Numbered from the stretch's first letter, positions 6,992 through 37,817 are shown. The stretch: 64,000 nucleotides of DNA from an uncultured Acidobacteriaceae bacterium (GCA_963768265.1 CAVYHM010000044.1:212206-276205); one strand, 5' to 3'. Translations and numbers: made by a program. The notes: generated from the sequence alone by a model not told the origin.

Positions 6992-8059
6992 TTATACTCT
7001 CGCGTGCGCGGGTTGGTGTGCGACGAGTTCCAGCAGGTCGCGGGCGACGCGGGCGGTGTTGTGGCGGGCTACGCCTGCTTCTTCCAGGTAATCGCCGAGG
7101 ACCGGGACCACGCCAAGGGCCTCTACTTCATCGAGGTCGTTGACGATCTGGCAGGCACCTTCGGTCGCATACTTGGCCTTCAGTTCGTCGGAGGCAGGAG
7201 TGCGGTTGATGAGCGCGTAGTCGAAGAGTTGTTTCTGCCCATGGCGGCCGAGGGCTCGGATATGGTCTGCCGCTGTTAGCCCCAAGCTCTCATTGGCCTG
7301 CGTCATCAGGTTGCAGATGTAGATCTTCGTGGCCGCTGAGGACACAATTGCCTCCGAAATCCCTCGCACTAGTAGGTTCGGGATCAGGCTGGTGAACAGC
7401 GATCCCGGCCCTATGGTAATGACATCAGCGCCGGCGATTGCTTCCAAAGTCTGCGGCATGGGACCGACGTCAGGTGGTACGAGAAAAAGTTCTCGGATGC
7501 GTCCCTTACTGGCAGTGATTTTCGTCTCGCCGCGAACGCGTGTGCCGTCCTCAAACAGCGCCTCGAGTTCGATGTTCGATGTGGTGGCCGGATAGATGTG
7601 GCCGCGGGTGAGTAGGATTTCCGACGAGAGTCGCACGGCTTCGGAAAAGTCCGAGGTAAGCGAAGTGAGCGCAGCGAGAAAAAGATTGCCGAAGCTGTGG
7701 CCTTCAAGCCCCGACCCTTTATCGAAGCGGTGGCGAAATAGTTTGGAGAGCAGGGCTTCGTCTTCGCTGAGGGCAACGATGCAGTTGCGGATGTCGCCGG
7801 GGGGGAGCATGTTGAGCTCCTTGCGCAGGCGCCCGCTCGATCCGCCGTCGTCACTCACGGTGACCACGGCGCAAAGCTCGCGGATGATCGGCAAGTCTGA
7901 CTGTGCCGCACGGATCTCCGCGGGCAAAAGGACGAAACGCTTCAGTCCTGTCAGCAGTGTGGAAAGACCAGTCCCGCCGCCAATGGCAACGACCCGCAGA
8001 CCGCGTTCGCGCGCGGTTTTTTCCTGGGGTAGAAGTTCGGCGGTCTTGGGCTCCATCAC
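6992..8059 (-). CDS. yvcK: Gluconeogenesis factor YvcK / CofD-like (UPF0052)
   Basis: VVAIGGGTGLSTLLTGLK P-loop-like N-terminus and the length are typical of the YvcK family. Confidence 0.8.
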   Translation of the reverse strand: MMEPKTAELLPQEKTARERGLRVVAIGGGTGLSTLLTGLKRFVLLPAEIRAAQSDLPIIRELCAVVTVSDDGGSSGRLRKELNMLPPGDIRNCIVALSEDEALLSKLFRHRFDKGSGLEGHSFGNLFLAALTSLTSDFSEAVRLSSEILLTRGHIYPATTSNIELEALFEDGTRVRGETKITASKGRIRELFLVPPDVGPMPQTLEAIAGADVITIGPGSLFTSLIPNLLVRGISEAIVSSAATKIYICNLMTQANESLGLTAADHIRALGRHGQKQLFDYALINRTPASDELKAKYATEGACQIVNDLDEVEALGVVPVLGDYLEEAGVARHNTARVARDLLELVAHQPAHARV

Positions 8060-16637: not shown

Positions 16638-17705
16638 ATGCTCCTGCACGGCATTCTTCCTCCCATCACGACTCCGTTCTATCCCGACGGCAACATTTAC
16701 TTCAAAAAGCTCGAATCGAACGTGGAGCGCTATTCGCGCACGCCAGTTAGCGGGATCGTTGTGCTCGGTTCGACTGGCGAGGCGATCCTGCTCTCCGACC
16801 AGGAGCGGCGCGACGTGCTGAAGGCAGCAGGCGAGGCGACAGCACCCAATAAGGTTCTAATTGCCGGGACGGGCATCGAGTCTGCCATCGAGACGCTGCG
16901 GCTCACCGAGTATGCCGCCGAACTCGGGTACGACGTGGCTATGGTCCGGACGCCGCACTACTACAAGAAGCAGATGCAGGCGCCGAACCTTCTAGCGTTC
17001 TATCGCACGGTGGCCGACCGCTCGCCGCTGCCCGTCATCATTTACAACTTCCCGCAGGCCACCGGATACGACATGCCCGCCGAAGTCGTTATCGAACTGG
17101 CCGAGCACCCGAACCTGATTGGCATCAAGGAATCGAGCGGCGACGTGGAGAAGGTCCGCAAGATAGTAGAAGGCACGCGCCACATTAAGCGGAGCGCGAC
17201 GGTCACCGAGACTTTCGACGCAGTTACACCGCGCATGCTGGCGGCCGCGAGCTCGGCCAGTGAGGGCGGGGAATTAGTGCAGGTGGGCGCGCTGTCGTTG
17301 GCGTCGGCTCCCCAACCTTCTTCGTCGTCTGTCACGGTTGTAGGCAAGTTGAAAACGCGTCAGAAGGAAGTCGGGTTCCAGGTGCTGGTCGGCGCCGCGC
17401 ACAAGCTGCAGCCTTCACTCGATGCCGGAGCGGTCGGAGCGATCCTGGCTTTCGCCTGTCCGGCGCCCACTGCCTGCTATGAGATCTATGCTGCGTGGAA
17501 GGAGGGCGACGCAGAACTCGCCCGTCTCAAACAGGAACGAATTGCGAAGGCCGCGCAGCGCGTCGGCGATCTCGGTGTTCCCGGATTCAAGTACGGTATG
17601 GACTTCAACGGCTATTTCGGCGGCCCATCGCGGTTACCATTCCTTCCGCTGACCGCTGACCTGAAAGCAGAAATAGAGCACGCCCTGGCCGACATAAGGA
17701 ACTGA
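16638..17705 (+). CDS. Dihydrodipicolinate synthase / N-acetylneuraminate lyase family protein with a ~60-aa internal insertion
   Basis: TPF...G, VLGSTGE and IGIKESSGD (Schiff-base Lys) motifs. There is an extra low-complexity block (SATVTETF...SSSSVTVVGKLKTRQKE) before the GFQVLVG segment. Confidence 0.7.
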   Translation: MLLHGILPPITTPFYPDGNIYFKKLESNVERYSRTPVSGIVVLGSTGEAILLSDQERRDVLKAAGEATAPNKVLIAGTGIESAIETLRLTEYAAELGYDVAMVRTPHYYKKQMQAPNLLAFYRTVADRSPLPVIIYNFPQATGYDMPAEVVIELAEHPNLIGIKESSGDVEKVRKIVEGTRHIKRSATVTETFDAVTPRMLAAASSASEGGELVQVGALSLASAPQPSSSSVTVVGKLKTRQKEVGFQVLVGAAHKLQPSLDAGAVGAILAFACPAPTACYEIYAAWKEGDAELARLKQERIAKAAQRVGDLGVPGFKYGMDFNGYFGGPSRLPFLPLTADLKAEIEHALADIRN

Positions 17706-18113: not shown

Positions 18114-18156
18114 TTGCCGGTGACTTGTGATCAGAATCACATCAGGCGTATACTGC

Positions 18157-18176
18157 ATTCGAACGAACGTTCGAAT
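18157..18176. promoter_or_regulatory. Perfect 9-2-9 palindrome, candidate TetR operator
   Basis: The sequence attcgaacg aa cgttcgaat sits 10 nt upstream of the tetR ATG at 18186. Confidence 0.45.
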
Positions 18177-18185
18177 TAATTGGTT

Positions 18186-18863
18186 ATGGCCACGCTTTCG
18201 ACTGCTGGACGAATTTCCGTGCGCCGTCACTCCGCGGCGCTTGCTCCAGCCACGCGCTACGATCGACGCCTCGCGGAGATCCTGATTCACGCCACCGAGG
18301 TCTTTTGCAAGAAGGGATACGAGGGCGCTTCGATGCGCGACCTTTCCCGCGCCAGTGGCATGTCGCTTGCCGGTCTGTACTATTACTTCGAATCCAAAGA
18401 ACGGCTGTTGTTCGTGATCCAGAAGCACACGTTTACGACGATTGTAGAGAGACTCAAGGCGCGACTGGAAGGCGTGAGTGATACGGAAGAACGCATCCGA
18501 ATTTTCATCCTCAACCACCTCGAATATTTCCTAGCCAACCAGGCGGCCATGAAGGTCCTCTCACACGAGGCGGAGGTACTGAAGAACGGATTCGCAGAGG
18601 AAGTGGCCGCTATCAAGCGCGAGTACTATCGCATTTGCGTAGGCCTGCTCGACGACCTGAAGGGCGAGCGGGACTTGCAGTTCTCGACCCGGATCGCTGT
18701 TCTCAGTCTGTTCGGCATGATGAACTGGATCTACACCTGGCACAACCCGCGCGTGGATGCCGACGCTGTCTCCATGGCCCGCGAGATGGCCGACATTTTT
18801 TTGCGCGGGGTCGTGACGCCGGCGAAGGCGCGCAAGGACAAGGACAAAGACAAAGAGCGGTGA
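18186..18863 (+). CDS. TetR/AcrR family transcriptional regulator
   Basis: HTH region ILIHATEVFCKKGYEGASMRDLSRASGMSLAGLYYYFESKERLL. ATG at 18186, just inside the TTG ORF start at 18180. Confidence 0.85.
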   Translation: MATLSTAGRISVRRHSAALAPATRYDRRLAEILIHATEVFCKKGYEGASMRDLSRASGMSLAGLYYYFESKERLLFVIQKHTFTTIVERLKARLEGVSDTEERIRIFILNHLEYFLANQAAMKVLSHEAEVLKNGFAEEVAAIKREYYRICVGLLDDLKGERDLQFSTRIAVLSLFGMMNWIYTWHNPRVDADAVSMAREMADIFLRGVVTPAKARKDKDKDKER

Positions 18864-18916: not shown

Positions 18917-19738
18917 ATGGCGACCACAATGCAGCCCGCGACCGGCGAAACCACGAAACAACTGATCAACTACCGCACCGATGGCGGCATCGGCGTGATT
19001 GAGATGTGCGATCCGCCCGCCAACACGTACACCTATGTAATGAATCGGCAGCTCGATGACGCGATCCTCAAGGCGCGCATGGACAACGACGTCTACGTGA
19101 TCGTGCTGACAGGTGCGGGCGACAAGTTCTTCTCCGCCGGCGCCAACATCAATATGCTTGCCAGCGTCGATCCCACGTTCAAGTACTACTTCTGCCTGCA
19201 TGCCAACGAAATGCTGCTGCGTCTGGAACACACGCCCAAGTTGGTGATTGCCGCGATCAACGGCCACTGCGTGGGTGGTGGGCTGGAGATCGCGATGGCC
19301 GCGGACATTCGCATCGCGCGCAAAGATGCCGGCAAGATTGGCCTGCCGGAAGTGAACCTGGGCGTACTTCCCGGCACCGGCGGCACGCAGCGCCTCTCGC
19401 GGATGGTGGGGAAGAGTAAGGCCATCGAACTGATGGTGACCGGCAACACGTTCTCGTTCGAAGAGGCGCAGGAACTCGGCATCGTCAACGACATCTTCGA
19501 GCGCGACGGCTTCATGGAAAACATCATGGAGTACGCCAAACAGTTCTGTCCGCCTAACAAAGCTTCGAAGGCCGTCGGACGAATCAAGCGCGCCGTGCAG
19601 ACGGGCTGGGAGATTCCGATGGAATCGGCGCTGGCGGTCGAACGCGAGAACCAGCAGTTGCTATTCCAAAGCGAGGACGCGAAGGAGGGACTGGCTGCTT
19701 ACGTGGAGAAGCGGCCAGCGATCTTCAAGGCGAAGTAA
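18917..19738 (+). CDS. Enoyl-CoA hydratase/isomerase (crotonase) family protein
   Basis: Crotonase core FFSAGANI...INGHCVGGGLEIAMAADIRIA...GLPEVNLGVLPGTGGTQRL. Confidence 0.85.
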   Translation: MATTMQPATGETTKQLINYRTDGGIGVIEMCDPPANTYTYVMNRQLDDAILKARMDNDVYVIVLTGAGDKFFSAGANINMLASVDPTFKYYFCLHANEMLLRLEHTPKLVIAAINGHCVGGGLEIAMAADIRIARKDAGKIGLPEVNLGVLPGTGGTQRLSRMVGKSKAIELMVTGNTFSFEEAQELGIVNDIFERDGFMENIMEYAKQFCPPNKASKAVGRIKRAVQTGWEIPMESALAVERENQQLLFQSEDAKEGLAAYVEKRPAIFKAK

Positions 19739-19821: not shown

Positions 19822-21291
19822 ATGATGCTTGCGGCGACCAAAGTTAGTCTGAAGCCCGGCAGGCTACTAATCGACGGCGCGTGGGTCGAGGGAGAGAAGA
19901 CCTTCGACACCATCAATCCCGCTACGGGCGAAGTGCTCACGCAAATCGCGGAAGGCACGCCCGCTGACGTGGACCGTGCCGTCAATGCTGCGCGCCGTGC
20001 CTTCGAAGACCGCGGCGGTCCCTGGCGCAAACTCTCGGCCAGCGAGCGCGGACGCCTGATCTGGAAGCTTGCCGATCTCGTGGAGAAAAACATCGAGGAG
20101 CTGACCGAACTGGAAACCCTCGACAACGGCAAGCCAATTTTTGAATCGCGCTATGTCGACCTGCCGATGGTGATCGACGTTCTGCGCTATTACGCAGGCC
20201 TGGCGACGAAAATTCACGGTGAGACTGTCAACACGCTTGAGACCGCGTTTACGTATACGCTCCGCGAGCCGGTCGGTGTAGTTGGTCTGATTGTTCCGTG
20301 GAATTTCCCGCTTTTGCTTGCATCGTGGAAGGTCGGACCGGCTCTGGCGTGTGGCAATACGATTCTTCTCAAGCCTGCCGAACAGACCCCGCTGACGACG
20401 CTGAGATTTGGAGAACTTGTCATCGAGGCCGGTTTTGCGCCAGGCGTGGTTAACATTCTGACCGGCGGGCCGGAGACGGGCAGGGCGATCGTCGCGCATC
20501 CCGGTATCGACAAGATCGCTTTCACCGGCTCAACCGCTGTTGGCAGAGAAATCATGCGCGGTGCGGCCGATACGCTGAAGCGCGTGACCTTGGAACTCGG
20601 AGGCAAGTCACCGAATATCGTATTCGCTGACTCCGATATCGATAGCGCGGTGAAGGGTGCGATTAACGGCATTTTCTACGGGAAGGGCGAAGTCTGCAAT
20701 GCGGGCTCGCGGCTATTCCTTGAGAGCAAGCTAAAAGACGAATTCAATGAAAAACTCATAGCCCGCGCTTCGAAGATGCGGCCGGCCGATCCGCTCGATC
20801 CGAAGACGCGGCTGGGGGCCATCGTCAGCCAGGAGCAGATGCAGACCGTGCTGGAATATATCGAAGCCGGCAAGCAGGACGGCGCCAGGCTAGTCGCAGG
20901 CGGTAACCGAGTCGCGGTCGACGGTAATAAAGGATTCTTCATCGAGCCAACAATTTTCGGCGACGTGCAAAACGACATGAAGATTGCCCGCGAAGAAATC
21001 TTCGGTCCTGTACTTTCCGTGCTCACCTTCGATGATCTGGACGAAGTCATCGAGCAGGCGAACAACAATCCGTACGGGCTAGCGGCGGCAGTCTGGACCC
21101 GCGACGTGAAAAAGGCGCACACCGTCTCGCGCCGGCTCAAGGCGGGAACCGTATGGATCAATACCTACGGCCTTATGGACGCGTCGCTCCCGTTTGGCGG
21201 ATACAAGAGCTCCGGCTTCGGCCGCGAATTGGGCGCGCACGCGATGGAACATTACACCGAGTTGAAAACAGTTTGGTTGAACATGGGATAG
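19822..21291 (+). CDS. NAD(P)-dependent aldehyde dehydrogenase (general ALDH family)
   Basis: VPWNFPLL, KPAEQTPL, FTGST, LELGGKSP (catalytic Glu), GEVCNAGSR (catalytic Cys), EEIFGPV. Confidence 0.9.
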   Translation: MMLAATKVSLKPGRLLIDGAWVEGEKTFDTINPATGEVLTQIAEGTPADVDRAVNAARRAFEDRGGPWRKLSASERGRLIWKLADLVEKNIEELTELETLDNGKPIFESRYVDLPMVIDVLRYYAGLATKIHGETVNTLETAFTYTLREPVGVVGLIVPWNFPLLLASWKVGPALACGNTILLKPAEQTPLTTLRFGELVIEAGFAPGVVNILTGGPETGRAIVAHPGIDKIAFTGSTAVGREIMRGAADTLKRVTLELGGKSPNIVFADSDIDSAVKGAINGIFYGKGEVCNAGSRLFLESKLKDEFNEKLIARASKMRPADPLDPKTRLGAIVSQEQMQTVLEYIEAGKQDGARLVAGGNRVAVDGNKGFFIEPTIFGDVQNDMKIAREEIFGPVLSVLTFDDLDEVIEQANNNPYGLAAAVWTRDVKKAHTVSRRLKAGTVWINTYGLMDASLPFGGYKSSGFGRELGAHAMEHYTELKTVWLNMG

Positions 21292-21339: not shown

Positions 21340-22533
21340 GTGAATGAGGTCAAGATTATGCCGGGCAAAGTCGCAAAAATCGGAACGTTTAGTGAATGGA
21401 TGGGTCTGTTCAACGATTGGCGCAAGGAAATCGGGGTCAACACTGATGATATCGAAGCCTTCCACTTCGACACGCTTTACGGAGCGATCGAAACGGAAGA
21501 GATCGAGTTTGGCTCCTACAAAGGCCGGCGTAAGTGGGAGAACCTGCGCCAGATCCCCACGCAGCAGATGCGCGACGCGCTGATGAACATGATCGTCTAC
21601 CAGGGCGACACCGAATTTGCCAGTGTCGAACAGCAGCGCAACCTATTGCAGAATGCTCCGACCGACTGGGACCGCCGCGCCATCACCCGCGTCATGATCG
21701 AAGAGATGCGCCACGGCTGGCAGATGTGCGCCCTCTTGGTCGACCACTTCGGCTACTCCGGCAAGGTGGAAGCGCAGAAGATGCTGGAGCGGCGGGCCTT
21801 TGACAATCAGCGTCTACTCGGCGCGTTCAATGTGGACGTTGACAACTGGATGGATTTTTTCACCTACACCGACTTCGTCGACCGCGATGGTAAGTTCCAG
21901 TTGCAGATGCTGAAGTACTCGGCCTTTGCCCCGCTTGGCCGCTCCATGTCCTACATGTTGCGCGAAGAGGCCTTCCACATGGGCGCCGGCAACGATGGGC
22001 TCCGCCGCATCGTGGAGGCGGGCGTGATCCCGCCGTGGTTGATTCAGAAGTATCTCAACAAATGGATTTCGTGTTCCTACGATCTGTTCGGCACCGACCA
22101 TTCTTCTTCGGCGCACTGGGCCTACGTTTGGGGCGTGAAAGGTCGCTATGACGAACCCAAGAATGAGCAGGCCCCCGATCTCGACGATCTGAATGACTAC
22201 AACCGTAACCTTTATCGGGATGAAGTTTCCGGACTGATCGAGCGTTTCAACGGCTCGCTTGATCCGGCTGCGCCGAAGCTTTACGCGCCGCACATCAAGT
22301 TCAATCGCGCGATTGGCCGCTGGGCCGGGCAGAAATTCCACGCTCAGACTGGCGACCCGCTCGACGATCGCGACTACGAGCAGCATTTCAAAGAATCCAT
22401 GCCGTCCGCCGAGGACAAGAAATTGCTGCTCGACATCATCGACGCGGAGAAGAAGTGGATTGCCGAAAAGACCGGGGCTCGCGACCCGTTGTCCACGATT
22501 GGAGAAGTGCGGAAGTCTGCGATCAACCTGTAG
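21340..22533 (+). CDS. BoxB/PaaA-family diiron acyl-CoA oxygenase-like protein (short form)
   Basis: Two ExxH motifs (IEEMRH, REEAFH), each preceded at about 29 residues by an acidic ligand candidate (GDTE, VDRDG). The blocks QGDTEFASVEQQR and DRDGKFQLQML match my memory of benzoyl-CoA epoxidase BoxB. The start is GTG 21340 or ATG 21358. Confidence 0.6.
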   Translation: MNEVKIMPGKVAKIGTFSEWMGLFNDWRKEIGVNTDDIEAFHFDTLYGAIETEEIEFGSYKGRRKWENLRQIPTQQMRDALMNMIVYQGDTEFASVEQQRNLLQNAPTDWDRRAITRVMIEEMRHGWQMCALLVDHFGYSGKVEAQKMLERRAFDNQRLLGAFNVDVDNWMDFFTYTDFVDRDGKFQLQMLKYSAFAPLGRSMSYMLREEAFHMGAGNDGLRRIVEAGVIPPWLIQKYLNKWISCSYDLFGTDHSSSAHWAYVWGVKGRYDEPKNEQAPDLDDLNDYNRNLYRDEVSGLIERFNGSLDPAAPKLYAPHIKFNRAIGRWAGQKFHAQTGDPLDDRDYEQHFKESMPSAEDKKLLLDIIDAEKKWIAEKTGARDPLSTIGEVRKSAINL

Positions 22534-22596: not shown

Positions 22597-23379
22597 ATGC
22601 CGTTGATGCCCACCGCCGTATCCCGTCTTGCAGTCAACGTGGCTGCTCCCGTGGCTCGGGTCACCCTGCGCAATCCCCCGCTGAATGTAATCGACATTCC
22701 GATGATGGAGGAGTTGGCGCACTTTCTGGCGGAGCTTGACTCTCGGCCAGACGTTTCCGTAATCGTTCTGAGCGGCGACGGGAAAGCATTTTCAGCGGGC
22801 GTGGACGTGGCCGCGCATACTCCCGACAAAGTTGAGGAGATGCTGACGAAGTTCCACGTCGTGGTCCGGGCTCTGCTGGCAACGAAGAAAGTAACGGTTG
22901 CGACGGTTCATGGGCCCTGCTCGGGCGGGGGAGCAGAGTTGGCGATGGTTTGTGATATAGCGTTCACAACTGAGTCGGCCCAGTGGGGATTCCCGGAAAT
23001 CAAGCTCGGTTGCTATCCTCCGGTGGCGTGCACGGCTCTCGCGGTGCTCGTCGGCCAGAAACGGGCGGCAGAGCTGATTCTTACCGGACGCACAATCGGG
23101 GGCAAGGAGTGCGCGGACATCGGGTTGGCGACTCGTGCCGTGCCCGGGAACGAATTGACCGCCGCCGTCGAGGAGTGTGTGGGACATTTGCTCAGCCTGA
23201 GCCCAGCGGCCCTGGCAATCGCCAAGAAGGCCTCTTACGCCTGGGACTCCATGCACTTCGACAAGGGCCTCGCCCGGGCAGAAAAAATCTATTTCGAAGA
23301 GCTAATCAAGACGGCAGACTCGGGTGAAGGTGTCCGCGCGTTTATGGAGAAGCGCGCGCCCAGTTGGACCGGGAAATAA
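22597..23379 (+). CDS. Enoyl-CoA hydratase/isomerase (crotonase) family protein
   Basis: RVTLRNPPLNVID..., KAFSAGVDV, HGPCSGGGAELAMVCD, GFPEIKLGCYPPVA. Start chosen at ATG 22597 within TTG ORF 22567. Confidence 0.8.
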   Translation: MPLMPTAVSRLAVNVAAPVARVTLRNPPLNVIDIPMMEELAHFLAELDSRPDVSVIVLSGDGKAFSAGVDVAAHTPDKVEEMLTKFHVVVRALLATKKVTVATVHGPCSGGGAELAMVCDIAFTTESAQWGFPEIKLGCYPPVACTALAVLVGQKRAAELILTGRTIGGKECADIGLATRAVPGNELTAAVEECVGHLLSLSPAALAIAKKASYAWDSMHFDKGLARAEKIYFEELIKTADSGEGVRAFMEKRAPSWTGK

Positions 23380-23392: not shown

Positions 23393-23716
23393 ATGGATTA
23401 CGAAATTACTCCCGAGGAAGTGAAGTCTAAGCTCGACGCGGGAGAGGAGTTTGTCCTGCTCGATGTTCGAGAACCCTGGGAATTCGAAACCGCCCGTATC
23501 GACGGTGCGAAGTTGATTCCTATGGGGGATGTGCCTTCGAGGGCGCATCAGGAACTCGATCCCGAGGGACCGATCGTGGTGCTCTGCCATCATGGCGTCC
23601 GTTCCATGAACGTTACGGTCTGGCTCCGCCAGCAGGGTTTCGAAAAAGCGCAGTCCATGCGGGGCGGCATCGATGCCTGGTCGCGTCGCGTAGACGGGAA
23701 AGTTCCGATGTATTAA
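23393..23716 (+). CDS. Single-domain rhodanese-like sulfurtransferase
   Basis: MDYEITPEEVKSKLDAGEEFVLLDVREPWEF... and active-site loop VVLCHHGVRS. Confidence 0.8.
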   Translation: MDYEITPEEVKSKLDAGEEFVLLDVREPWEFETARIDGAKLIPMGDVPSRAHQELDPEGPIVVLCHHGVRSMNVTVWLRQQGFEKAQSMRGGIDAWSRRVDGKVPMY

Positions 23717-23765: not shown

Positions 23766-24257
23766 GTGAAAAAAGAACTCGTCGACCTGAAAATCAACGG
23801 ACGGACCTATGAACTCGCCATCGAGTCGAGTGCACTGCTGCTCGATGTGTTGCGCCAGGAGTTACAACTGACAGGCTCGAAACGCGGCTGTGATGATTCG
23901 TCGTGCGGCGCTTGTACGGTGCTGGTCGATGGCATCGCCATGATGTCCTGCACTCTCCTGGCAGCAAGCTGCGAAGGGCGAGAGGTCACGACCGTCGAAG
24001 GAGTCAGTGAGAACGGCTGCCTGGCGGCGATTCAAAAAGCATACGGAGATTGGGGTGGCGCGCAGTGCGGATACTGCACGCCGGGTTTCATCATGACGGT
24101 AAAGTCGTTACTGGCGGAGAACCCGAACCCATCGGAAGAGGACGTTCGCGCCGCGCTCAGCAGTAATTTGTGCCGCTGCACCGGGTACAACCAGATGTAT
24201 GAAGCGATCCGCGCAGCGCTTGCAGCGGAGCGAAAGGAATTGGTCGGGGCTAAGTAA
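23766..24257 (+). CDS. (2Fe-2S)-binding small subunit of a xanthine-dehydrogenase-family molybdoenzyme (HcrC/CoxS-like)
   Basis: CDDSSCGACTV...C (plant-type cluster) and GAQCGYCTPGF...CRCTGY (second cluster). GTG start. Confidence 0.9.
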   Translation: MKKELVDLKINGRTYELAIESSALLLDVLRQELQLTGSKRGCDDSSCGACTVLVDGIAMMSCTLLAASCEGREVTTVEGVSENGCLAAIQKAYGDWGGAQCGYCTPGFIMTVKSLLAENPNPSEEDVRAALSSNLCRCTGYNQMYEAIRAALAAERKELVGAK

Positions 24258-24332: not shown

Positions 24333-26915
24333 ATGAAACACGACTTTTCCATCATCGGCAAGCCTACTGCCATGATCGATGCGGCGGAGAAGACCACCGG
24401 CGCTGGCAAGTACACCGATGATCTGCGCCTGCCCGGCATGCTGGTCGGTAAGATTCTGCACTCGCCTTATCCCCACGCCCGGCTGAGACGCATCGACGCG
24501 AGCCGCGCAGAGAAACTCGAAGGAGTAGTCGCCGTTGTCGTCGGCAAAGACGCGCCTAACCCCTACGGCATTCTTCCCGTCGGCCACGACGAGCATGCTC
24601 TTGCGCTCGACAAAGTTCGCTATGTTGGCGACAACGTTGCCTGCGTCGTTGCTGTTTCGGAGGCTGTTGCCGAATCAGCCCTGGAACTCATCGACGTCGA
24701 CTATGAGGTCCTTCCGGCCTACTTTGATCCAGAACAGGCGATGAAGGCCATAACAGTCCTCATCCACGACAACAAGCCCGGCAACATCGAGAAGGACTAT
24801 CACCACGTCTTCGGCGATCCCGATCGCGGTTTCGCGGATGCCGATCACGTGGCCGAAGCCCGCTTCATAGCCAATGAGGTCACGCACGCGGCCATGGAGC
24901 CGCATTCCACCCTGGCCTCGTTCGAAATCGATCCGCACAGTGGAAAGCCCGGACGCCTCACCGTCTGGTCGTCGACGCAAGTCCCTTACTACCTTCAGCA
25001 CAAACTTTCCCTCGTACTCGAAATGCCGATGGCGCAGATTCGCGTGATCAAGCCGCTGGTCGGCGGCGGCTTCGGCGGGAAGAGCGAGGTCATTCCGCTC
25101 GAAATCATCGCCGCCGTGGCTGCGCGGAAAGCCAAGGCTCCGGTCAGGATCACTTACACTCGCGAGGAAGTGTTCTGGGCACATCGAGGACGTCCGCGCA
25201 CCATCATCGATCTGAAAACCGGCGTGAAGAAAGATGGCCGCATCAGCGCCGTGAAGGCTCGAGTGGTGCAGGACGGCGGCGCCTACTGCTCCTACGGTGT
25301 GGTGACGATTCTCTATTCCGGCGCGCTGCTCGGCGCGCTCTACGATATTCCAAACATTCAGTACGACGGATACCGCGTGCTGACCAACAAACCCGCCTGT
25401 GGCGCGATGCGCGGCCACGGCACGGTGAACGTGCGCTTCGCGTTCGAATCGCAACTCGATGAACTCGCAGCCACGATTGGCATGGACCCCGCTGAAATTC
25501 GCCAGCGCAATCTATTGCAGCCGCCCTGTATCACGGTCAACGGCCTGCGCGTGCAGAGCTACGGTTTGCCCGAGTGCATTGAGAAAACGGTCGAGCGCTC
25601 GGGCTGGAAGGAGCGCCACGGCAAACTGCCCGCAGGACGCGGCCTTGGCATCGCGTGCAGTCATTACGTCAGCGGCGCCGCGAATTCTATTATTCGCTCC
25701 GATATGCCGCATTCCACGGTCAACATCAAGATCGACCGCGACGGTGGGGTTGTGGTGTACACCGGCGCCTCGGAAATCGGGCAGGGCTCAGACACGATGA
25801 CGGCTCAGATCGCGGCCGAAGCGCTGGGATGTTCGCTTTCTCGCGTGCGCGTCATCGCCGCCGATACTGATCTGACGCCCATCGACATTGGTTCGTACTC
25901 CAGCCGGGTTACGTTCATGGCGGGGAACGCTACGCTGCGTGCGGCTGGGGAAGTGAAGAAGCTGATTGCGGCTGCGGCGGCTAAGAAGATGGGATGCACT
26001 CTCGCGAACCTGACCTTTCGCAACGATCGAGTGTTCAGGAGAGATGTTGCTGCATCTTCGTGGTCAGAGTTGGCGGACATGAGTGTCCGCCCCACACAAC
26101 ACGAAACCTCGGTCAGTGGCCGCGTCGAAGGCCAGATTCTGCGCGGATCCCTGCAGCAGAAACGCAAGGACGAAGGGCCCAAAGATTGGATGACTTTCGA
26201 AGAGGCAGTCGTTGCGGCGATCGATTTTCACGGAGCCCTCACAGGAACCGGATCGTATGCTCCTCCGGCGGAAGCTCGCGGCGGCAAACACAAGGGCGGG
26301 GGCGTGGGGCCCTCGCCTGCTTACTCTTACTCGGCCCAGGTCGCCGAGGTCAGCGTCGATCAGGAAACCGGAGAAGTCACGGTACACAAGGTCTGGGCCG
26401 CGCACGACTGCGGCCGGGCTCTGAATCCGGTTTCCGTCGAAGGCCAGATCATTGGCTCCGTCTGGATGGGCATGGGGCAGGCCCTCACTGAAGAGATGGT
26501 CTGGAAAGACGGCATGCTCATGAACCCGGGGCTGCTCGAATATCGCAGTCCTTCGTCGGTGGAGTCTCCGACGGTCGAACCGATCATCGTCGAAAGCATC
26601 GATCCCGAGGGTCCTTTCGGCGCGAAGGAGTGCAGCGAGGGGTCGCTGGCCGCAACCATTCCTGCCATCGCAAATGCCATTTACGATGCAGTTGGAGTGC
26701 GCTTGCATGAGTCGCCGTTCACTCCGGAAAGGGTGCTGGCGGCCCTGCGCGCAAAAAAGAATGCCAAGGCGTTAGACCTGACCGAGGGGATTGACCCGAC
26801 TGCGCCCACCCGTTTTCGGGAACATGGGGGATCGCTCTGCTTCGACGGCAAAGGACCACATCGACACGCACTCGATCCTTCGCGGCGTGAAGCATCCATC
26901 GGAGGCGCGGATTGA
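24333..26915 (+). CDS. Molybdopterin-binding large subunit, xanthine dehydrogenase family (HcrA/CoxL-like), with an internal insertion and a C-terminal tail
   Basis: 860 aa. It has the aldehyde oxidase/XDH a/b hammerhead N-terminus (GKPTAMIDAAEKTTGAGKYTDD), GGGFGGK, and C-terminal ECSEGSL (active-site Glu region). Confidence 0.85.
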   Translation: MKHDFSIIGKPTAMIDAAEKTTGAGKYTDDLRLPGMLVGKILHSPYPHARLRRIDASRAEKLEGVVAVVVGKDAPNPYGILPVGHDEHALALDKVRYVGDNVACVVAVSEAVAESALELIDVDYEVLPAYFDPEQAMKAITVLIHDNKPGNIEKDYHHVFGDPDRGFADADHVAEARFIANEVTHAAMEPHSTLASFEIDPHSGKPGRLTVWSSTQVPYYLQHKLSLVLEMPMAQIRVIKPLVGGGFGGKSEVIPLEIIAAVAARKAKAPVRITYTREEVFWAHRGRPRTIIDLKTGVKKDGRISAVKARVVQDGGAYCSYGVVTILYSGALLGALYDIPNIQYDGYRVLTNKPACGAMRGHGTVNVRFAFESQLDELAATIGMDPAEIRQRNLLQPPCITVNGLRVQSYGLPECIEKTVERSGWKERHGKLPAGRGLGIACSHYVSGAANSIIRSDMPHSTVNIKIDRDGGVVVYTGASEIGQGSDTMTAQIAAEALGCSLSRVRVIAADTDLTPIDIGSYSSRVTFMAGNATLRAAGEVKKLIAAAAAKKMGCTLANLTFRNDRVFRRDVAASSWSELADMSVRPTQHETSVSGRVEGQILRGSLQQKRKDEGPKDWMTFEEAVVAAIDFHGALTGTGSYAPPAEARGGKHKGGGVGPSPAYSYSAQVAEVSVDQETGEVTVHKVWAAHDCGRALNPVSVEGQIIGSVWMGMGQALTEEMVWKDGMLMNPGLLEYRSPSSVESPTVEPIIVESIDPEGPFGAKECSEGSLAATIPAIANAIYDAVGVRLHESPFTPERVLAALRAKKNAKALDLTEGIDPTAPTRFREHGGSLCFDGKGPHRHALDPSRREASIGGAD

Positions 26916-27946
26916 GCTTGCCCACGTTCAAGCTATTGCGCCCGCGGTCGGTCGGCGAAGCCGTTGAAATTCTGGCGGGACGCACTGCTCGTGTGGCCGC
27001 GGGCGACTCGCCCGCGCAGGCGACCCGCATTATCGCCGGTGGCACGGACCTGATCCCCTCGATGCGGCAGAAGCTGTTTGAGCCAGGGTACGTTCTCGAT
27101 CTGTCCGGAATCACTACGTTACGCGGAATTTCTCCCCTCCCCGATGGTGGCGTCGAAATCGGGGCGTTGACCACGCTGCGGGCCATCGAACGCTCAGCCT
27201 TCCTGCGCCAGCACTATGCTGTTCTCGCAGAAGCCGCGGCCACTGTTGCCTCACCCGTGTTGCGCAACATGGGGACGATTGGCGGCAACATCTGTCTCGA
27301 CACGCGCTGTCTCTGGTACAACCAGTCGCTTACCTGGCGCAAGGGATGTGGCTTCTGCATCAAGAAAGATGGCGACCTCTGCCATGTTGCCCCGGGCGGC
27401 ACCAAGTGCTGGGCCGCATTTTCCGGCGACACGCCTGCTGCGCTGCTCTGCCTGAATGCCGAGATCGAAATCGCGAGCGCTTCTGGGCTGCGCCGCGTGC
27501 CGCTGCACGAGTTCTACACCGGGCTGGGCGACGACTATCGCAAGCTGAAGCCGAACGAGATTGTCACCCGCGTGCTTCTGCCCGCGTCCTCTGCCGACTA
27601 TCGCGGTGTGTACCGCAAGTTACGGGTTCGCGGATCGATCGACTACCCGCTGGCTGGAGTTGCAGTGGTCATGAAGCGCTCGAATGGCCATATAGCCGAT
27701 GCCCGCATCGGCATTACTGCAGTCAATCCCGCTCCTGTGCTGGTGAAGGGAGCAGGCGAGTTGCTCTCAGGCAAGGTCGTCGACGAAATCCTCGCCGAAG
27801 CCGCTGGAGACTTGGCGGCGAAGACCGCAAAGCCGCTCACTACTTCTGCCCTCACGCCCGAGTACCGCCGCGAGATGATTCGCGTATTTACGAAGAGGGC
27901 AGTGATGGCGTGCGCCCAAGTGGCCGGTCGGACTGATCGAAATTAG
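26912..27946 (+). CDS. FAD-binding medium subunit (HcrB/CoxM-like) with an extra Cys-rich [4Fe-4S]-type loop
   Basis: The TTG start overlaps the upstream stop (TTGA). It has the AGGTDL FAD motif and the insertion NICLDTRCLWYNQSLTWRKGCGFCIKKDGDLCHVAPGGTKCW. Confidence 0.8.
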   Translation: MSLPTFKLLRPRSVGEAVEILAGRTARVAAGDSPAQATRIIAGGTDLIPSMRQKLFEPGYVLDLSGITTLRGISPLPDGGVEIGALTTLRAIERSAFLRQHYAVLAEAAATVASPVLRNMGTIGGNICLDTRCLWYNQSLTWRKGCGFCIKKDGDLCHVAPGGTKCWAAFSGDTPAALLCLNAEIEIASASGLRRVPLHEFYTGLGDDYRKLKPNEIVTRVLLPASSADYRGVYRKLRVRGSIDYPLAGVAVVMKRSNGHIADARIGITAVNPAPVLVKGAGELLSGKVVDEILAEAAGDLAAKTAKPLTTSALTPEYRREMIRVFTKRAVMACAQVAGRTDRN

Positions 27947-27966
27947 TTTTCGTGAAGGAGAGAAAC

Positions 27967-28467
27967 ATGACTCGTTACCATATCGCTCAGGTTAACATTG
28001 GGCGAGTGAGAGCCCCGATCGGGGACCCGCTGATGGCCGGATTTGTTGCGCGCCTGGACGATCTCAACGCGCTCGCGGATCACAGTCCCGGATTTGTCTG
28101 GCGTCTGCAAACATCAGAAGGAAACGCGACGTACTTTCGGCCCTATGATGACGAGCGAATCCTGATGAACATGTCAGTCTGGGAGACGATTGACGCACTC
28201 CGACACTACGTCTACCAGACGGTCCATGCGGAGCTGCTCCGGCAGCGACACGACTGGTTCGAAAAGTTCACAGGCACGTATACCGCTTTGTGGTGGGTGC
28301 CCGCCGGTCATCGCCCGGGAATCGACGAGGCGAGGAAGCGTCTGGCCCACCTGGAAAAGCACGGGCCAACGGAATTCGCTTTCTCCTTCAAAACGACTTT
28401 TCAACCGGATGCGCGATTTCAGCAGGCCATCGACTGGGTGTCGTTTCAGCCTTGTCCAGCCGCATAG
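27967..28467 (+). CDS. DUF3291 domain protein
   Basis: MTRYHIAQVNIGRVRAPIGDPLMAGFVARLDDLNALADHSPGFVWRLQ, the typical DUF3291 N-terminus (from memory). An AAGGAG lies 7 nt upstream of ATG 27967. Confidence 0.65.
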   Translation: MTRYHIAQVNIGRVRAPIGDPLMAGFVARLDDLNALADHSPGFVWRLQTSEGNATYFRPYDDERILMNMSVWETIDALRHYVYQTVHAELLRQRHDWFEKFTGTYTALWWVPAGHRPGIDEARKRLAHLEKHGPTEFAFSFKTTFQPDARFQQAIDWVSFQPCPAA

Positions 28468-28545: not shown

Positions 28546-29388
28546 GTGATCACCGACTGCCACATCCATATCCAGCCGATAGAGATGTTCAAGGCCGACG
28601 CGCTTGAGCTCATGAAACGGAAGCGGCCGAACTTCGACCAGATCGTCGAGTTCTGCCGCTCACCCAAGGCCTTCCTCAAGTTTCTGGACGCGAGCGGCCT
28701 CGACCGAGCGATGCTGATCAACTACGTGGCGCCGGAAGTAATCGGCTTCACCAACGGGGTAAATCAGTTCGTCGCCGACTATGTAAAGGAAGATCCAACC
28801 AGACTGCTCTCGTGTGGCAGCCTGCATCCGCGGCACACCACCAACGTCTTGGCCGATGTGGAGCAGATTTTGCGGCTGGGACTGAAGATGATCAAGATTC
28901 ATCCGCCGCACCAATTGCTGTTTCCCAATGACTATCTCAGCGGCGTCAAAGAGCTCGAGATCATCTATCGCGCGGCGGAGGCCAACGGTGTGCCCGTAAT
29001 GTTCCACACCGGAACCTCGATTTTTCCGGGTGCCCGCAACAAGTATGGCGATCCGATCTATGTCGACGATGTCGCGGTCGATTTCCCCAAGCTGAAGATC
29101 TTGCTGGCCCACGGCGGCCGCCCGCTCTGGATGCAGACCGCGTTCTTTCTCGTGCGCCGGCACCCTAACGTCTATCTCGATATCAGTGGAATTCCGCCCA
29201 AGACCCTGCTCAAGTATTTTCCTCGTCTGGAAGAAATCGCTCACAAGACGCTGTTCGGCACAGACTGGCCGGGTCCCGGCGTGCCCGACATCAAGAAAAA
29301 TCTCGACGAATTCCGCGCTCTTGCTTTGCCTGAGAACGTCCAGCGACAGATTCTCAGCGAAACTGCGCTAGGGATCTGGCCAGCCTGA
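28546..29388 (+). CDS. Amidohydrolase_2 (PF04909-type) metal-dependent hydrolase/decarboxylase
   Basis: N-terminal DCHIHI metal motif, later HPPHQ, FHTG, LAHGG and GTDWP. GTG start. Confidence 0.7.
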   Translation: MITDCHIHIQPIEMFKADALELMKRKRPNFDQIVEFCRSPKAFLKFLDASGLDRAMLINYVAPEVIGFTNGVNQFVADYVKEDPTRLLSCGSLHPRHTTNVLADVEQILRLGLKMIKIHPPHQLLFPNDYLSGVKELEIIYRAAEANGVPVMFHTGTSIFPGARNKYGDPIYVDDVAVDFPKLKILLAHGGRPLWMQTAFFLVRRHPNVYLDISGIPPKTLLKYFPRLEEIAHKTLFGTDWPGPGVPDIKKNLDEFRALALPENVQRQILSETALGIWPA

Positions 29389-34295: not shown

Positions 34296-34916
34296 ATGCA
34301 AAACCAAACCATCAACGGAGTCACAAACATGAAGCGTTCCTTATTACTCATCGCAGCTTCGCTATTCTTCGCGGCAGCACCTGTACTGACAGCGCAGCAG
34401 GACAGCGATCACGCTGAAGTCGGTGCGTTCTTCGATTATTTTCGCTTTAGCAACGCCTCGCCCGTCAGGAACTTCGTCGGCGTCGGCGGCCGGGCAGCAT
34501 TTAACGTTCGATCCAGCGTTCAGATTGAAGCCGAGATGGCCTACGACTTCAAGCGGAACTTCACTAATACCTTCAGTAACGGCGTGACGACCGAGGTGGT
34601 CAACACATCATTCCGCACGCTGCATGGATTTTTTGGACCAAAATTCCAAACGGGTTCCGGCCCTTTTCGCGTGTTCGTCACCGGCAAGGTCGGATTCGAT
34701 AACTTCAGCATTGACAACCAGGGTGCAACCACGGGTTTCGTGAACACAGTCGGCCTTACCACCGGCAAGACCGCCTTCGCCGTCTATCCCGGCGGGGGAT
34801 TTGAAGCCTTTGCCGGCCCGATCGGGATTCGTGCCGAAGTAGGTGACGACATTTACTTCATCGGCGGAGCCCATAACAACCTGCGCGTGACCTTCGGACC
34901 ACAGTTCCGTTTTTAG
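34296..34916 (+). CDS. Outer-membrane beta-barrel protein (OmpA-like/OmpW-like small barrel)
   Basis: Signal peptide MKRSLLLIAASLFFAAAPVLTAQQ, alternating beta-strand pattern, and C-terminal ...GPQFRF (terminal Phe). A strong SD precedes 34296; an alternative start is 34329. Confidence 0.7.
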   Translation: MQNQTINGVTNMKRSLLLIAASLFFAAAPVLTAQQDSDHAEVGAFFDYFRFSNASPVRNFVGVGGRAAFNVRSSVQIEAEMAYDFKRNFTNTFSNGVTTEVVNTSFRTLHGFFGPKFQTGSGPFRVFVTGKVGFDNFSIDNQGATTGFVNTVGLTTGKTAFAVYPGGGFEAFAGPIGIRAEVGDDIYFIGGAHNNLRVTFGPQFRF

Positions 34917-34938
34917 TCTCGCGAAAACCTGATACTCA

Positions 34939-34970
34939 CTGGCGGCCCGTTACAGGCCGCCAGTTTTTTT
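34939..34970 (+). terminator. Rho-independent terminator
   Basis: ctggcggcc cgttaca ggccgccag followed by seven T residues. Confidence 0.85.
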
Positions 34971-35230
34971 CAGCACGCCTTCTTTCTCGCCGCCTCCTGC
35001 CCGTGCCAACCACACCGTCACGTTCTCGTGTGACCTGTCACGGCGGGAATACTCCGGAGCCTTGGCCGGATGTTCCAGAGGACAATGCTCAGGTAGAGAA
35101 GGCGATTTCGTTCCGCACTGTTAAACCCCTGTCACCGCGTGCAAAGCCTTGCCTGTGATAGAGTATTGGCCACCAAGAGGCTGGCCGTGGCCGCGTCCGC
35201 CCAGATTTTCCACCGCTAAAGGAGCGATCC

Positions 35231-35641
35231 ATGACCACCCTCCGCGACCTCGTGAAAGACCGCAGAGTCTATTCCGTCGAATCCACTCGCAGCGTGCTCG
35301 AGGCTGCCCGCTTCATGATGGAGCACAATATCGGCGCCTTACCGGTCCTTCGCAACGGAGAACTGGCAGGCATTCTGTCAGAGCGCGACATCATGAACCG
35401 CGTCGTGGCGGTCGGTCGCACGCCCGGAACTACCGCCGTGTCTGAAGTCATGACCGCGAACCCGCGCGCGGTCGCGGCTGACGAAAGCATCGAAGAGTGC
35501 CTCTTCATCATGCGGGAGTTTGGATTTCGCCACCTCCCCATCGTCGACGGAAAAGAATTGACGGGACTGGTCTCGCTGCGGGATATTCTGATGCGTCAGG
35601 CGGCCGAAATCGAGCGCCAGACACGACGCGCCGCCTCGTAG
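35231..35641 (+). CDS. CBS domain pair protein
   Basis: Two CBS repeats (..MMEHNIGALPVLRNGELAGILSERDI.. and ..MREFGFRHLPIVDGKELTGLVSLRDI..). AAAGGAG precedes the ATG. Confidence 0.85.
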   Translation: MTTLRDLVKDRRVYSVESTRSVLEAARFMMEHNIGALPVLRNGELAGILSERDIMNRVVAVGRTPGTTAVSEVMTANPRAVAADESIEECLFIMREFGFRHLPIVDGKELTGLVSLRDILMRQAAEIERQTRRAAS

Positions 35642-35725
35642 CGGTGTGCGAAAAACTCCGACCTGCGCTTCGTGTGTTGAGGAGGGTGGGCTTCTTCCAG
35701 CCTGCTGGAAAATTGTGCACGCTCG

Positions 35726-36499
35726 TCACTCCCGTTTCCGCAGCAGGACTTCCCCTGGCTTGGGAGGCAATTTGAAAGGGAATTCGAAAAGTTTCCCTTC
35801 TACCGGAAGCCGCAGGATGAATTCCTCCTGCTTCTTCCATCCACCGATCCACTTGTTCTGGGTGCTGAATAGAACCCACCCGCTGGTCTCCGGATGCCCC
35901 GGTCCGAGCCGCGTGGGCCGCAGACTGTTCTTGCTGACAAACTCCAGCAACTCCGCCGAATCCTTCTGAAAGGCCCGTACGTAGGCCTCTTTCTCTTCTT
36001 TTCGCTCCGGATGTTTTTGGCCTTCGCGCGCGGCCTCATGATCCACCGCGTCGGCATCGTCCTGTACTCTTTGCGCAAAGCCTTCGGGATCCAGCGGCGT
36101 TTGCACAACTTGGAAATGCTTTACAAACTCGAGCGAGATCGCATCCGTGCCCAGTTCCAGCGTCCCCTGGCCGCGATAGCGCACGTCCAGCAATACCGCG
36201 AAGAAGGGCTCGTGCCGGCGGTGAACTTTTTCCAGTTCCTGGGAATCGACCGACAGCGTCACGCCCACATCGTCCGACCACAGTCCGTAGCGATATCTGC
36301 CGTCGTCGCCTAGTGAAAATGTACAGCCAGGATGCTCCTCATCCCAGCGTACGGCGGGAATCTTAGGCTTATCTTTCCCGGGTTCGGCTCGCGATGGCGC
36401 AGGGAAGAACAGGGAGGCGCCTCCCAGCGCGAGTGCAGCGAGCATGGCCGCAGAGGTAAACATCCGCCCATGCCGCGCACGACCCTTGGGCAGGCACAT
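35726..36499 (-). CDS. Secreted hypothetical protein
   Basis: This is the C-terminal third of the 531-aa ORF. The start is at MCLPKGRARHGR or MFTSAAMLAALALGGASLFFPAPSRA (36463), with a signal peptide. The upstream part of the ORF overlaps the next gene in another frame. Confidence 0.5.
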   Translation of the reverse strand: MCLPKGRARHGRMFTSAAMLAALALGGASLFFPAPSRAEPGKDKPKIPAVRWDEEHPGCTFSLGDDGRYRYGLWSDDVGVTLSVDSQELEKVHRRHEPFFAVLLDVRYRGQGTLELGTDAISLEFVKHFQVVQTPLDPEGFAQRVQDDADAVDHEAAREGQKHPERKEEKEAYVRAFQKDSAELLEFVSKNSLRPTRLGPGHPETSGWVLFSTQNKWIGGWKKQEEFILRLPVEGKLFEFPFKLPPKPGEVLLRKRE

Positions 36500-36513
36500 G
36501 ATTATCTTCCAGC

Positions 36514-37560: not shown

Positions 37561-37817
37561 GAGCAGGTTTTCGGTTCAAGTAGCTTCGATTCAGGAGCCG
37601 ACATAAAGGCTGCCCGCCTCGTCCTTGCGCAGAATCAGGCATCGACCGAAATTTCGGCCTCGGATTTTCAGCCCTTTGTCGTTCAGATTGAACCCGATCG
37701 ACCTCAGGGCAGGTCTCTTCCATACCCATCGCAAGGAATCGTCCATATTATCATCCCCGAAGATCAATCCCCCAGCTTCGGGCTAGATCGACCGCAGTGC
37801 AGTTTGAGAAGGAAGAC

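Follow-up and report, generated by a model that had tools for sequence, protein, structure and literature searches.

The 64,000-nucleotide stretch analysed here (the window) comes from an uncultured Acidobacteriaceae bacterium (GCA_963768265.1, CAVYHM010000044.1:212206-276205) and carries, at positions 21340-22533 of the plus strand, a gene for a compact relative of the benzoyl-CoA 2,3-epoxidase subunit BoxB. A reading made from the sequence alone had described this open reading frame (ORF) as a short BoxB/PaaA-type diiron oxygenase without its canonical partners. The ORF is real, and the motifs quoted from it (IEEMRH, REEAFH, GDTE and VDRDG) are present in the translation. It belongs to a string of co-directional genes with gaps of 5-85 bp, in the order TetR-ECH1-ALDH-BoxBL-ECH2-rhodanese-HcrCAB-like-DUF3291-Amidohydro_2, where ALDH is an aldehyde dehydrogenase and BoxBL the compact BoxB-like protein. 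The features of the string are as follows.

18158..18175, no strand assigned: perfect palindrome TTCGAACGAACGTTCGAA, 18 bp, candidate TetR (PaaR-type) operator, read from the sequence by eye
18180..18863, plus strand: TetR-family repressor, first gene of the string (Pfam TetR_N and TetR_C_24; in-frame ATG at 18186)
18917..19738, plus strand: ECH1, single-domain crotonase (Pfam ECH_1; both catalytic Glu; GGGLE and PEV motifs)
19822..21291, plus strand: ALDH2-type aldehyde dehydrogenase (Pfam Aldedh, 606 bits)
21358..22533, plus strand: compact BoxB-like diiron protein, 391 aa (maximal ORF from GTG 21340)
22598..23379, plus strand: ECH2, single-domain crotonase (Pfam; both catalytic Glu; GGGAE and PEI motifs, from PDB alignment)
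23393..23716, plus strand: single-domain rhodanese (Pfam; active-site loop CHHGVR)
23766..24257, plus strand: [2Fe-2S] small subunit, HcrC-like (Pfam Fer2_2/Fer2; TIGR03193, 181.5 bits against a cut-off of 257.8)
24333..26915, plus strand: molybdopterin large subunit, HcrA-like (TIGR03194, 4-hydroxybenzoyl-CoA reductase alpha, 1033.3 bits against a cut-off of 994.55)
26912..27946, plus strand: flavin adenine dinucleotide (FAD) subunit, HcrB-like (Pfam FAD_binding_5; TIGR03195, 309.9 bits against a cut-off of 404.55)
27952..28467, plus strand: DUF3291 protein (Pfam), an occasional member found in 8 of 110 close loci
28546..29388, plus strand: Amidohydro_2 (PF04909) metal hydrolase, last recurrent gene (Pfam)

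The probable start of the oxygenase gene is ATG 21358, which has GAGG 8 nt upstream and gives a protein of 391 aa with the N-terminus MPGKVAK... of its close homologues. In this numbering, the putative diiron ligands are E86 (GDTE), E116 and H119 (IEEMRH), D175 (VDRDG), and E204 and H207 (REEAFH). Both the spacing of 88 residues between the two ExxH motifs and the six-ligand layout, proposed earlier from the sequence, were confirmed, the latter by an alignment with PDB sequences in which the six residues fall one by one on E120, E150, H153, D211, E240 and H243, the diiron ligands listed for BoxB (PMC5489048). A comparison of 174 sequences from the compact group showed no variation at five of these six positions; at the remaining one, H119, a single sequence has Q.

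Residues 68-250 match the Pfam family PaaA_PaaC (PF05138) with 41.5 bits, above the gathering score of 28.5. The best NCBIfam model is the BoxB equivalog TIGR03225 (E = 6e-67), and the PaaA equivalog TIGR02156 reaches only 38.9 bits against a cut-off of 280. In a search of PDB sequences, BoxB of Azoarcus ranked first (E = 2.8e-50), followed by SSO1313 of Sulfolobus and then by PaaA, with 175 bits for BoxB vs 29 bits for PaaA. An AlphaFold2 model built from a 17-sequence alignment (predicted local distance difference test score, 89.3) superimposes on the BoxB structures 3Q1G and 3PM5 with a query-normalised template-modelling (TM) score of 0.86 and a root-mean-square deviation of 2.4 A; the TM scores for SSO1313 and PaaA are only 0.48-0.50. 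Since the two E-values and the TM score agree, the resemblance to BoxB, which had been noted earlier, is not due to chance. As a ferritin-like diiron protein, the 391-aa product belongs to the BoxB/PaaA superfamily, in which it stands much nearer to BoxB than to PaaA.

However, the match to TIGR03225 amounts to 226.5 bits against a cut-off of 499.1, and it is broken into three fragments along the 471 positions of the model. Because the protein fails the test that defines BoxB (the equivalog cut-off with a full-length match), it was rightly set apart from the canonical enzyme; it is not a canonical BoxB, yet most likely works like BoxB. It is also shorter, as had been suspected, with 391 aa against about 475 aa, because five segments of the canonical 475-aa protein (residues 1-14, 47-70, 258-276, 329-351 and 445-451) are absent. 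The catalytic core and the C-terminal half are retained. Seven second-shell residues of BoxB, Q116, T119, S123, F193, F203, F206 and T210, have been reported to orient the benzoyl group (PMC5489048). The first five are identical in the compact protein, and the last two are replaced by Tyr and Val. These replacements characterize the whole group: among the same 174 sequences, the F206 position is Tyr in 168 and the T210 position is Val or Ile in 167, in contrast to the Phe and Thr of canonical BoxB.

The sequence-only reading had reported that BoxA, BoxC, PaaB/C/D/E and a CoA ligase are absent from the window. A survey of the ORFs longer than about 200 aa with Pfam and NCBIfam bears this out: it found neither a reductase of the BoxA or PaaE type nor PaaB/C/D, and likewise no AMP-forming ligase or two-domain BoxC. 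We further compared 176 related loci, each covering about 10 kb on either side of the oxygenase gene; 110 of these are close loci, with oxygenases at least 74% identical to that of the window, and 66 are distant. BoxA and BoxC of a canonical control contig, on which boxC (551 aa), boxB (475 aa) and boxA (436 aa) are adjacent, were used as tblastn queries. BoxA gave no match at E <= 1e-3 in the window and the 176 loci, and BoxC gave only 64-aa matches at the level of crotonases, all of them inside ECH1, with none for its C-terminal domain. A canonical boxA/boxC set lying just outside the block in related genomes was thus not found within about 10 kb in any of the 176 loci.

On the other hand, the crotonases, ALDH and TetR, which had been taken for ordinary flanking genes, turned out to be recurrent members of the cluster. 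In the close loci, we found ECH1 in 103, ECH2 in 106, TetR in 94, rhodanese in 93, Amidohydro_2 in 85, the molybdenum subunit in 65 and ALDH in 39. In the distant loci, the corresponding numbers are 25 for ECH1, 22 for TetR, 13 for rhodanese and 8 for ALDH. Where ALDH is present in the examined loci, it always lies inside the cluster. ECH1 is the most constant partner of the oxygenase; across the 80 best genome loci, it is 90-98% identical and the oxygenase 88-96%, similar to CarB. ECH2 evolves faster than ECH1 and is only 58-79% identical among the close loci; its start is placed at ATG 22598 within a maximal ORF from TTG 22567. The best PDB match of ECH1 is 2PPY (234 bits). The NCBIfam models nearest to ALDH are those of betaine-aldehyde and phenylacetaldehyde dehydrogenases, neither above its cut-off. 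The nearest PDB entry of the Amidohydro_2 protein, 3IRS, is an uncharacterised protein; it may act as a lactonase, hydrolase or decarboxylase. The string also holds features that had escaped the earlier description, namely the Hcr-type trio starting 1.2 kb downstream of the oxygenase gene, the rhodanese, the Amidohydro_2 gene and the operator before TetR.

The rhodanese, which resembles the C-terminal domain of MoeZ in the NCBIfam search, directly follows ECH2 or the oxygenase in 106 of the 176 loci, including loci without the molybdenum enzyme. We did not adopt the idea that it helps in sulfuration of the molybdenum cofactor, as it persists where the molybdenum enzyme is absent.

The distant loci fall into several types. 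Lineages with about 55% identity retain the order TetR-ECH1-[ALDH]-ECH-BoxBL, to which sister lineages add a 3-hydroxyacyl-CoA dehydrogenase (20 loci), a thiolase of the 3-oxoadipyl-CoA type and a two-subunit CoA-transferase. Type B has the order TetR-ECH1-[ALDH]-UDG-like-ECH-oxygenase-[CoA-transferase]-rhodanese-[Hcr-like trio-Amidohydro_2]-3-hydroxyacyl-CoA dehydrogenase, and type C the order TetR-ECH1-ALDH-thiolase-ECH-oxygenase-GDPD-dehydrogenase-Amidohydro_2. Of the models matched by the type C thiolase, that of 3-oxoadipyl-CoA thiolase scores best (529 bits; cut-off, 605). Types B and C also contain Amidohydro_2, with 48-57% identity, as does locus L094. Hybrid loci connect the types: L112 has the order ECH1-oxygenase-NuoE-NuoF and bridges locus types, L131 and L137 also retain ECH1, and in L137 and L110 an Hcr-like trio is joined to the oxygenase in other gene orders. 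The neighbourhoods in which the oxygenase gene stands alone (L083-L093, L108, L111 and L116) show no consistent partner.

Two observations on these loci may be added. The UDG-like gene of type B (L128:8599-9108 and 16 other loci) encodes a 169-aa protein of the uracil-DNA-glycosylase superfamily (PF03167), an odd family for a catabolic operon, and lies between ECH1/ALDH and the second crotonase. Three divergent lineages (L081, L084 and L093) have genes for the magnesium transporter MgtE in the vicinity of the oxygenase gene, and two have HSP20 genes there; this proximity probably reflects synteny, not function.

In one lineage, type D (L095-L107), genes for a NuoE-like [2Fe-2S] protein and a NuoF-like flavoprotein (nuoF_fam, 430 bits) start 25-31 bp past the stop codon of the oxygenase gene, in 14 loci when the hybrid L112 is counted. 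The pair is a candidate for the dedicated reductase of the oxygenase in this lineage. To our knowledge, a NuoE/NuoF-like NADH module has not been described as the reductase of an oxygenase. Thus, the claim that the gene has no partners is right for the canonical partners, but does not extend to type D. Likewise, of the "minimal or re-wired module" proposed at first, the word minimal, in the sense of a module without partners, does not fit. The word re-wired does, because crotonases, ALDH and TetR recur, beta-oxidation genes are added, and an Hcr-type enzyme and the NuoE/NuoF-like pair occur. Type D has a further peculiarity: in 10 loci (e.g., L096:5180-7576), a gene for a GAF-domain phosphoenolpyruvate-protein phosphotransferase (PtsP/EI-Ntr-like) lies directly upstream of the operator and the oxygenase gene, and is itself preceded by a divergent glyoxalase-fold gene.

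In the present organism, the cluster contains no gene for a reductase of the diiron site, and an unlinked ferredoxin or flavoprotein is the probable source of the electrons. The operon paaR-paaABCD-ALDH of Thermus thermophilus lists no PaaE (Table 5 in PMC6651687), and thus offers a precedent for an aryl-CoA epoxidase operon without a reductase gene. We considered the Hcr-type enzyme as an obligatory reductase and rejected this as the main explanation, because about 40% of the close loci, although otherwise identical, lack the trio.

The structures nearest to the TetR protein are those of other TetRs, including the fatty acid metabolism regulator protein 3WHB; among the neighbouring matches, 3VPR, 5K7F and 5GPA are the acyl-CoA sensors PfmR, AibR and FadR. 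The palindrome has a -10-like TATACT (18149-18154) on one side and the TetR start codon on the other. Within the window it is unique at two or fewer mismatches, where 0.06 occurrences are expected by chance; a scan for promoters and terminators gave counts not above those of shuffled sequences. The operator TTCGAACGNNCGTTCGAA, exact or with one to two mismatches, is found upstream of TetR in types A, B and C and in the low-GC lineage L081; in type D, where no TetR is adjacent, the same palindrome precedes the oxygenase gene by 25-45 bp. The core of the palindrome, CGAACG-NN-CGTTCG (CGAACGAACGTTCG), fits CNAACGNNCGTTNG, the pseudopalindrome common to two promoters controlled by PaaR of T. thermophilus (PMC6651687), a fit that does not imply orthology of the TetR protein to TTHA0973. 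PaaR is a TetR protein, and its gene is the first of the paaR-paaABCD-ALDH operon (PMC6651687). The two systems thus have in common a TetR as the first gene and an operator that fits the same consensus.

The Hcr-type trio has the same gamma-alpha-beta gene order as HcrCAB of Thauera aromatica (1RM6). The HcrA-like subunit gives 820 bits with the alpha subunit of 1RM6, compared with 279 bits for the next best family. The HcrB-like subunit contains, like its Thauera counterpart, a Cys-rich insert of about 50 aa (CLDTRC...GCGFC...LCHV...KCW), and the corresponding insert in Thauera binds a [4Fe-4S] cluster. The window enzyme differs in that its alpha subunit is about 90 aa longer, its beta and gamma subunits remain below the equivalog cut-offs, and the trio stands beside an O2-dependent oxygenase rather than in the context of anaerobic benzoyl-CoA reductase. 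The trio recurs beside the oxygenase in at least three lineages. Because it does so in lineages with only about 55% identity and is missing from about 40% of the close loci, it would appear to be an optional feeder that produces benzoyl-CoA.

The compact form is widespread, and it is abundant in metagenomes of soil and peat. The query matches 4221 proteins at E <= 1e-5, and a member 48% identical to it matches 4665 at E <= 1e-20. The genome locus closest to that of the window is in a metagenome-assembled genome (MAG) of 'Candidatus Sulfotelmatobacter' (96% identity; CarB 98%), and nearly all of the 80 best genome loci come from Acidobacteriota MAGs. Members of 365-391 aa come from MAGs labelled Acidobacteriota, Verrucomicrobia/Udaeobacter, Planctomycetes, Binatia, Eisenbacteria and others, and their source annotations are generic ('benzoyl-CoA 2,3-epoxidase subunit B' or 'Phenylacetic acid catabolic protein'). 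The compact lineages are 47-59% identical to each other and 36-39% to canonical BoxB. A fast neighbour-joining tree with 200 bootstraps supports canonical BoxB together with the protein P0237 (98.5%) and types A and B (100% each), but the core compact group obtains 45% and all compact forms together 0%. Since this tree leaves open both the monophyly of the compact forms and an origin of BoxB within them, we make no claim as to whether the compact or the canonical form came first. One member of 367 aa, P0192, has H, N, S, N and H instead of E, E, H, D and E at five of the six ligand positions, and this protein may be a non-catalytic derivative. The group to which the product of the window gene belongs is uncharacterised. 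We found nothing relevant in the searched literature on characterised short homologues of BoxB, BoxB in Acidobacteria or Hcr in Acidobacteria, and a 2026 survey of the phenylacetic acid pathway does not mention BoxB or Acidobacteria.

Among known systems, BoxB of Azoarcus evansii (PDB 3PER, 3PM5 and 3Q1G) is the closest. Both proteins have a ferritin-like fold over the whole length, a six-ligand diiron site in a single subunit, the thioester-binding Gln and five of the seven residues of the benzoyl pocket, and both are associated with a crotonase-family enzyme and an ALDH. The compact protein differs in its low identity, in the Tyr and Val of the pocket, and in the lack of BoxA and two-domain BoxC, the former being replaced by the NuoE/NuoF-like neighbours in one lineage; its cluster has an ALDH2-type instead of a BoxD-type dehydrogenase, and a PaaR-type operator. 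With the phenylacetyl-CoA 1,2-epoxidase PaaABCDE, it has in common the family PF05138, the logic of ring epoxidation of a CoA thioester, and a lower pathway with crotonases, ALDH, hydroxyacyl-CoA dehydrogenase and thiolase. However, the compact protein is remote from PaaA both in profile score (39 bits, with a cut-off of 280) and in structure (TM 0.50), lacks PaaB/C/D/E, and has a BoxB-like pocket. The second-best PDB match (69.6 bits), SSO1313 of Sulfolobus solfataricus (PDB 4MUD; 'ring oxidation complex/phenylacetic acid degradation-related protein'), is likewise a short stand-alone member of the superfamily, with the QGDTE-type and DRDG-type helices in common. In contrast to the compact protein, it has only 235 aa, consists of the four-helix core (query-normalised TM 0.48) without the C-terminal half, and its function is uncharacterised.

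We lean, with moderate confidence, towards the explanation that the gene encodes a catalytically competent, monomer-type oxygenase, namely a benzoyl-CoA-type ring epoxidase acting in a re-wired box-like pathway, the reductase of which is not encoded nearby; its substrate is an inference. In such a pathway, the reduced Fe(II)Fe(II) site, having received two electrons, would bind O2 and epoxidise an aromatic CoA thioester at its ring. Benzoyl-CoA, or a close ring-substituted analogue of it, is the likeliest substrate and would be held by a BoxB-like contact of Gln with the thioester and by a pocket of Phe, Thr and Ser. One of the single-domain crotonases, with ECH1 the favoured candidate, would replace the two-domain BoxC in removing and opening the epoxide, and the ALDH2-type enzyme, in a BoxD-like role, would oxidise the ring-opened semialdehyde. 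Hydratase, dehydrogenase and thiolase steps would then lead to 3-oxoadipyl-CoA, the dehydrogenase and thiolase presumably being encoded elsewhere in this organism. The Hcr-type enzyme could optionally convert 4-hydroxybenzoyl-CoA to benzoyl-CoA, and the PaaR-type TetR would repress the cluster at the palindrome overlapping its own promoter, to be released presumably by an aryl-CoA. BoxB itself is monomeric, is satisfied with catalytic (minor) amounts of BoxA, and depends on the crotonase-family BoxC to relieve product inhibition (PMC4498308). The features that BoxB requires for catalysis are retained in the compact protein.

Several points weigh against this explanation. The BoxB equivalog cut-off is missed by a wide margin, and two pocket positions differ systematically from BoxB; therefore, the substrate or the regiochemistry may differ. 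The crotonases and ALDH are generic by sequence, with none at a curated cut-off, and the similarity of the former to BoxC does not exceed the 64-aa crotonase-level match. Furthermore, about 40% of the close loci lack the Hcr trio and about 65% lack ALDH, and no electron donor was identified in the cluster. The operator is of the type that in Thermus controls phenylacetyl-CoA genes (PMC6651687). In about 19 of the 66 distant loci the oxygenase gene is alone, in some amid unrelated genes and in some on contigs too short to judge, which fits poorly with a dedicated catabolic operon everywhere. Lastly, activity data for members of the compact group are absent from the searched literature.

The PaaR-type operator and the fixed Tyr/Val changes in the pocket make a different aryl-CoA substrate the main rival: an enzyme of the same type might act on phenylacetyl-CoA, a hydroxy- or amino-benzoyl-CoA, or a heteroaryl-CoA, in a paa-like or a new peripheral pathway. 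The hydroxyl group of the Tyr, found with Val or Ile throughout the compact group, could form a hydrogen bond with a substituent of the ring, the operator matches the PaaR consensus of the Thermus phenylacetyl-CoA genes, and a set of crotonase, ALDH, dehydrogenase and thiolase fits the lower paa pathway as well as the box pathway. We nevertheless consider this rival unlikely, if worth keeping in mind, as the protein is far nearer to BoxB than to PaaA in both sequence and fold and keeps five of the seven benzoyl-pocket residues, including the Gln that binds the thioester. BoxB, moreover, does not accept phenylacetyl-CoA (PMC4498308), and the adjoining molybdenum enzyme is of the 4-hydroxybenzoyl-CoA reductase type, the product of which is benzoyl-CoA.

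Two further explanations seem to us improbable, and to a similar degree. The protein could be a diiron hydroxylase or desaturase for a non-aromatic acyl-CoA in an operon resembling beta-oxidation, with the likeness to BoxB due to shared ancestry only. That both crotonases retain the two canonical hydratase Glu residues, that a fatty acid metabolism regulator is among the structures nearest to TetR, and that many distant members stand alone amid housekeeping or stress genes would agree with this. However, the second shell by which BoxB binds the aromatic ring would then hardly be expected to be conserved, nor an Hcr-type enzyme to recur in the cluster; and the thiolase of type C is nearest to 3-oxoadipyl-CoA thiolase, that is, to the end point of ring-cleavage pathways. 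Alternatively, the protein could be an ordinary BoxB orthologue that has merely been shortened and works in the canonical box pathway, with BoxA, BoxC, BoxD and the ligase encoded elsewhere in the genome. Automated pipelines do name these proteins 'benzoyl-CoA 2,3-epoxidase subunit B', and the loci viewed here span only about 10 kb on each side, so that distant genes would be invisible. Against a mere shortening stand the score of less than half the equivalog cut-off, the lower identity to canonical BoxB than among the compact lineages, and the failure of the BoxA and BoxC C-terminal queries throughout the window and the 176 loci, although boxC, boxB and boxA are adjacent on the canonical contig. 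The compact group also has conserved partners of its own, including the NuoEF-like reductase genes of one lineage. Finally, a non-catalytic ferritin-like protein (a PaaC-like structural subunit, an iron store or a sensor) is very improbable even though PaaC, of the same Pfam family, is a structural homologue without ligands and P0192 has lost five of them. In the 174 sequences, only one of the six ligand positions varies, and this in a single sequence; the second shell is conserved too, one lineage has reductase-type genes in an operon with the oxygenase, and BoxB-type enzymes need no structural subunit (PMC4498308).

If the ring-epoxidase explanation is extended to the group as a whole, the compact proteins may represent a third, so far unrecognised architecture of aerobic CoA-dependent ring epoxidation, with just one compact subunit that carries the diiron site, single-domain crotonases instead of BoxC, a shared PaaR-type operator and an electron input specific to each lineage, the NuoE/NuoF-like NADH module included. 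In Acidobacteria, this architecture would be coupled in an operon to a 4-hydroxybenzoyl-CoA reductase of the 'anaerobic type'. Taken jointly, this combination is tentative, and we would sooner doubt than assert it. In a more extreme version, the FAD and Fe-S subunits of the Hcr-type enzyme, or its ferredoxin, could also feed electrons to the diiron site. Were the proposal true, the architecture would be widespread in uncultured phyla of soil and peat; under micro-oxic conditions, 4-hydroxybenzoate derived from lignin or Sphagnum could lose its hydroxyl group and undergo epoxidation. The Sulfotelmatobacter-like Acidobacteria that abound in peat, together with further uncultured phyla, would then own a streamlined CoA-epoxide pathway for aromatic acids, with a shared regulator and operator and with new solutions for the reductase, and this would bear on the turnover of phenolic carbon from lignin and Sphagnum at low or fluctuating oxygen. 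Irrespective of this, pipelines label thousands of these proteins as BoxB, although the curated BoxB model fails and BoxA and BoxC are absent from the window and the 176 loci; therefore, inferences on aerobic benzoate degradation in soil or peat that use such labels rest on an enzyme of predicted function. In complete genomes, the 18-bp operator can serve to trace the remaining members of the regulon, such as the reductase and the ligase or transferase.

Outside the cluster, the window contains two tandem genes for tyrosine recombinases (38850-39896 and 39977-40882; Phage_integrase and SAM-like N-terminal domains), preceded at 34296-38660 by ORFs without Pfam matches and a regulator of the helix-turn-helix-cupin type. 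This region may be an integrated element; no tRNA gene was found in the 64-kb window. A second, unrelated molybdopterin enzyme is encoded at 45854-46381 and 46385-48739 (a [2Fe-2S] subunit and a 784-aa molybdenum subunit, with no adjacent FAD subunit), followed by an AraC-type regulator (48770-49759). A 355-aa protein of the DHDPS family (16638-17705), of which only the first 180 or so residues match the family profile, is encoded upstream of the cluster, and this gene is syntenic there in type A loci only. The genes for CofD (2-phospho-L-lactate transferase of F420 biosynthesis; 6992-8059, minus strand) and for a small protein resembling F420H2-dependent quinone reductase (DUF2255; 45317-45679, plus strand) suggest that this acidobacterium uses cofactor F420.

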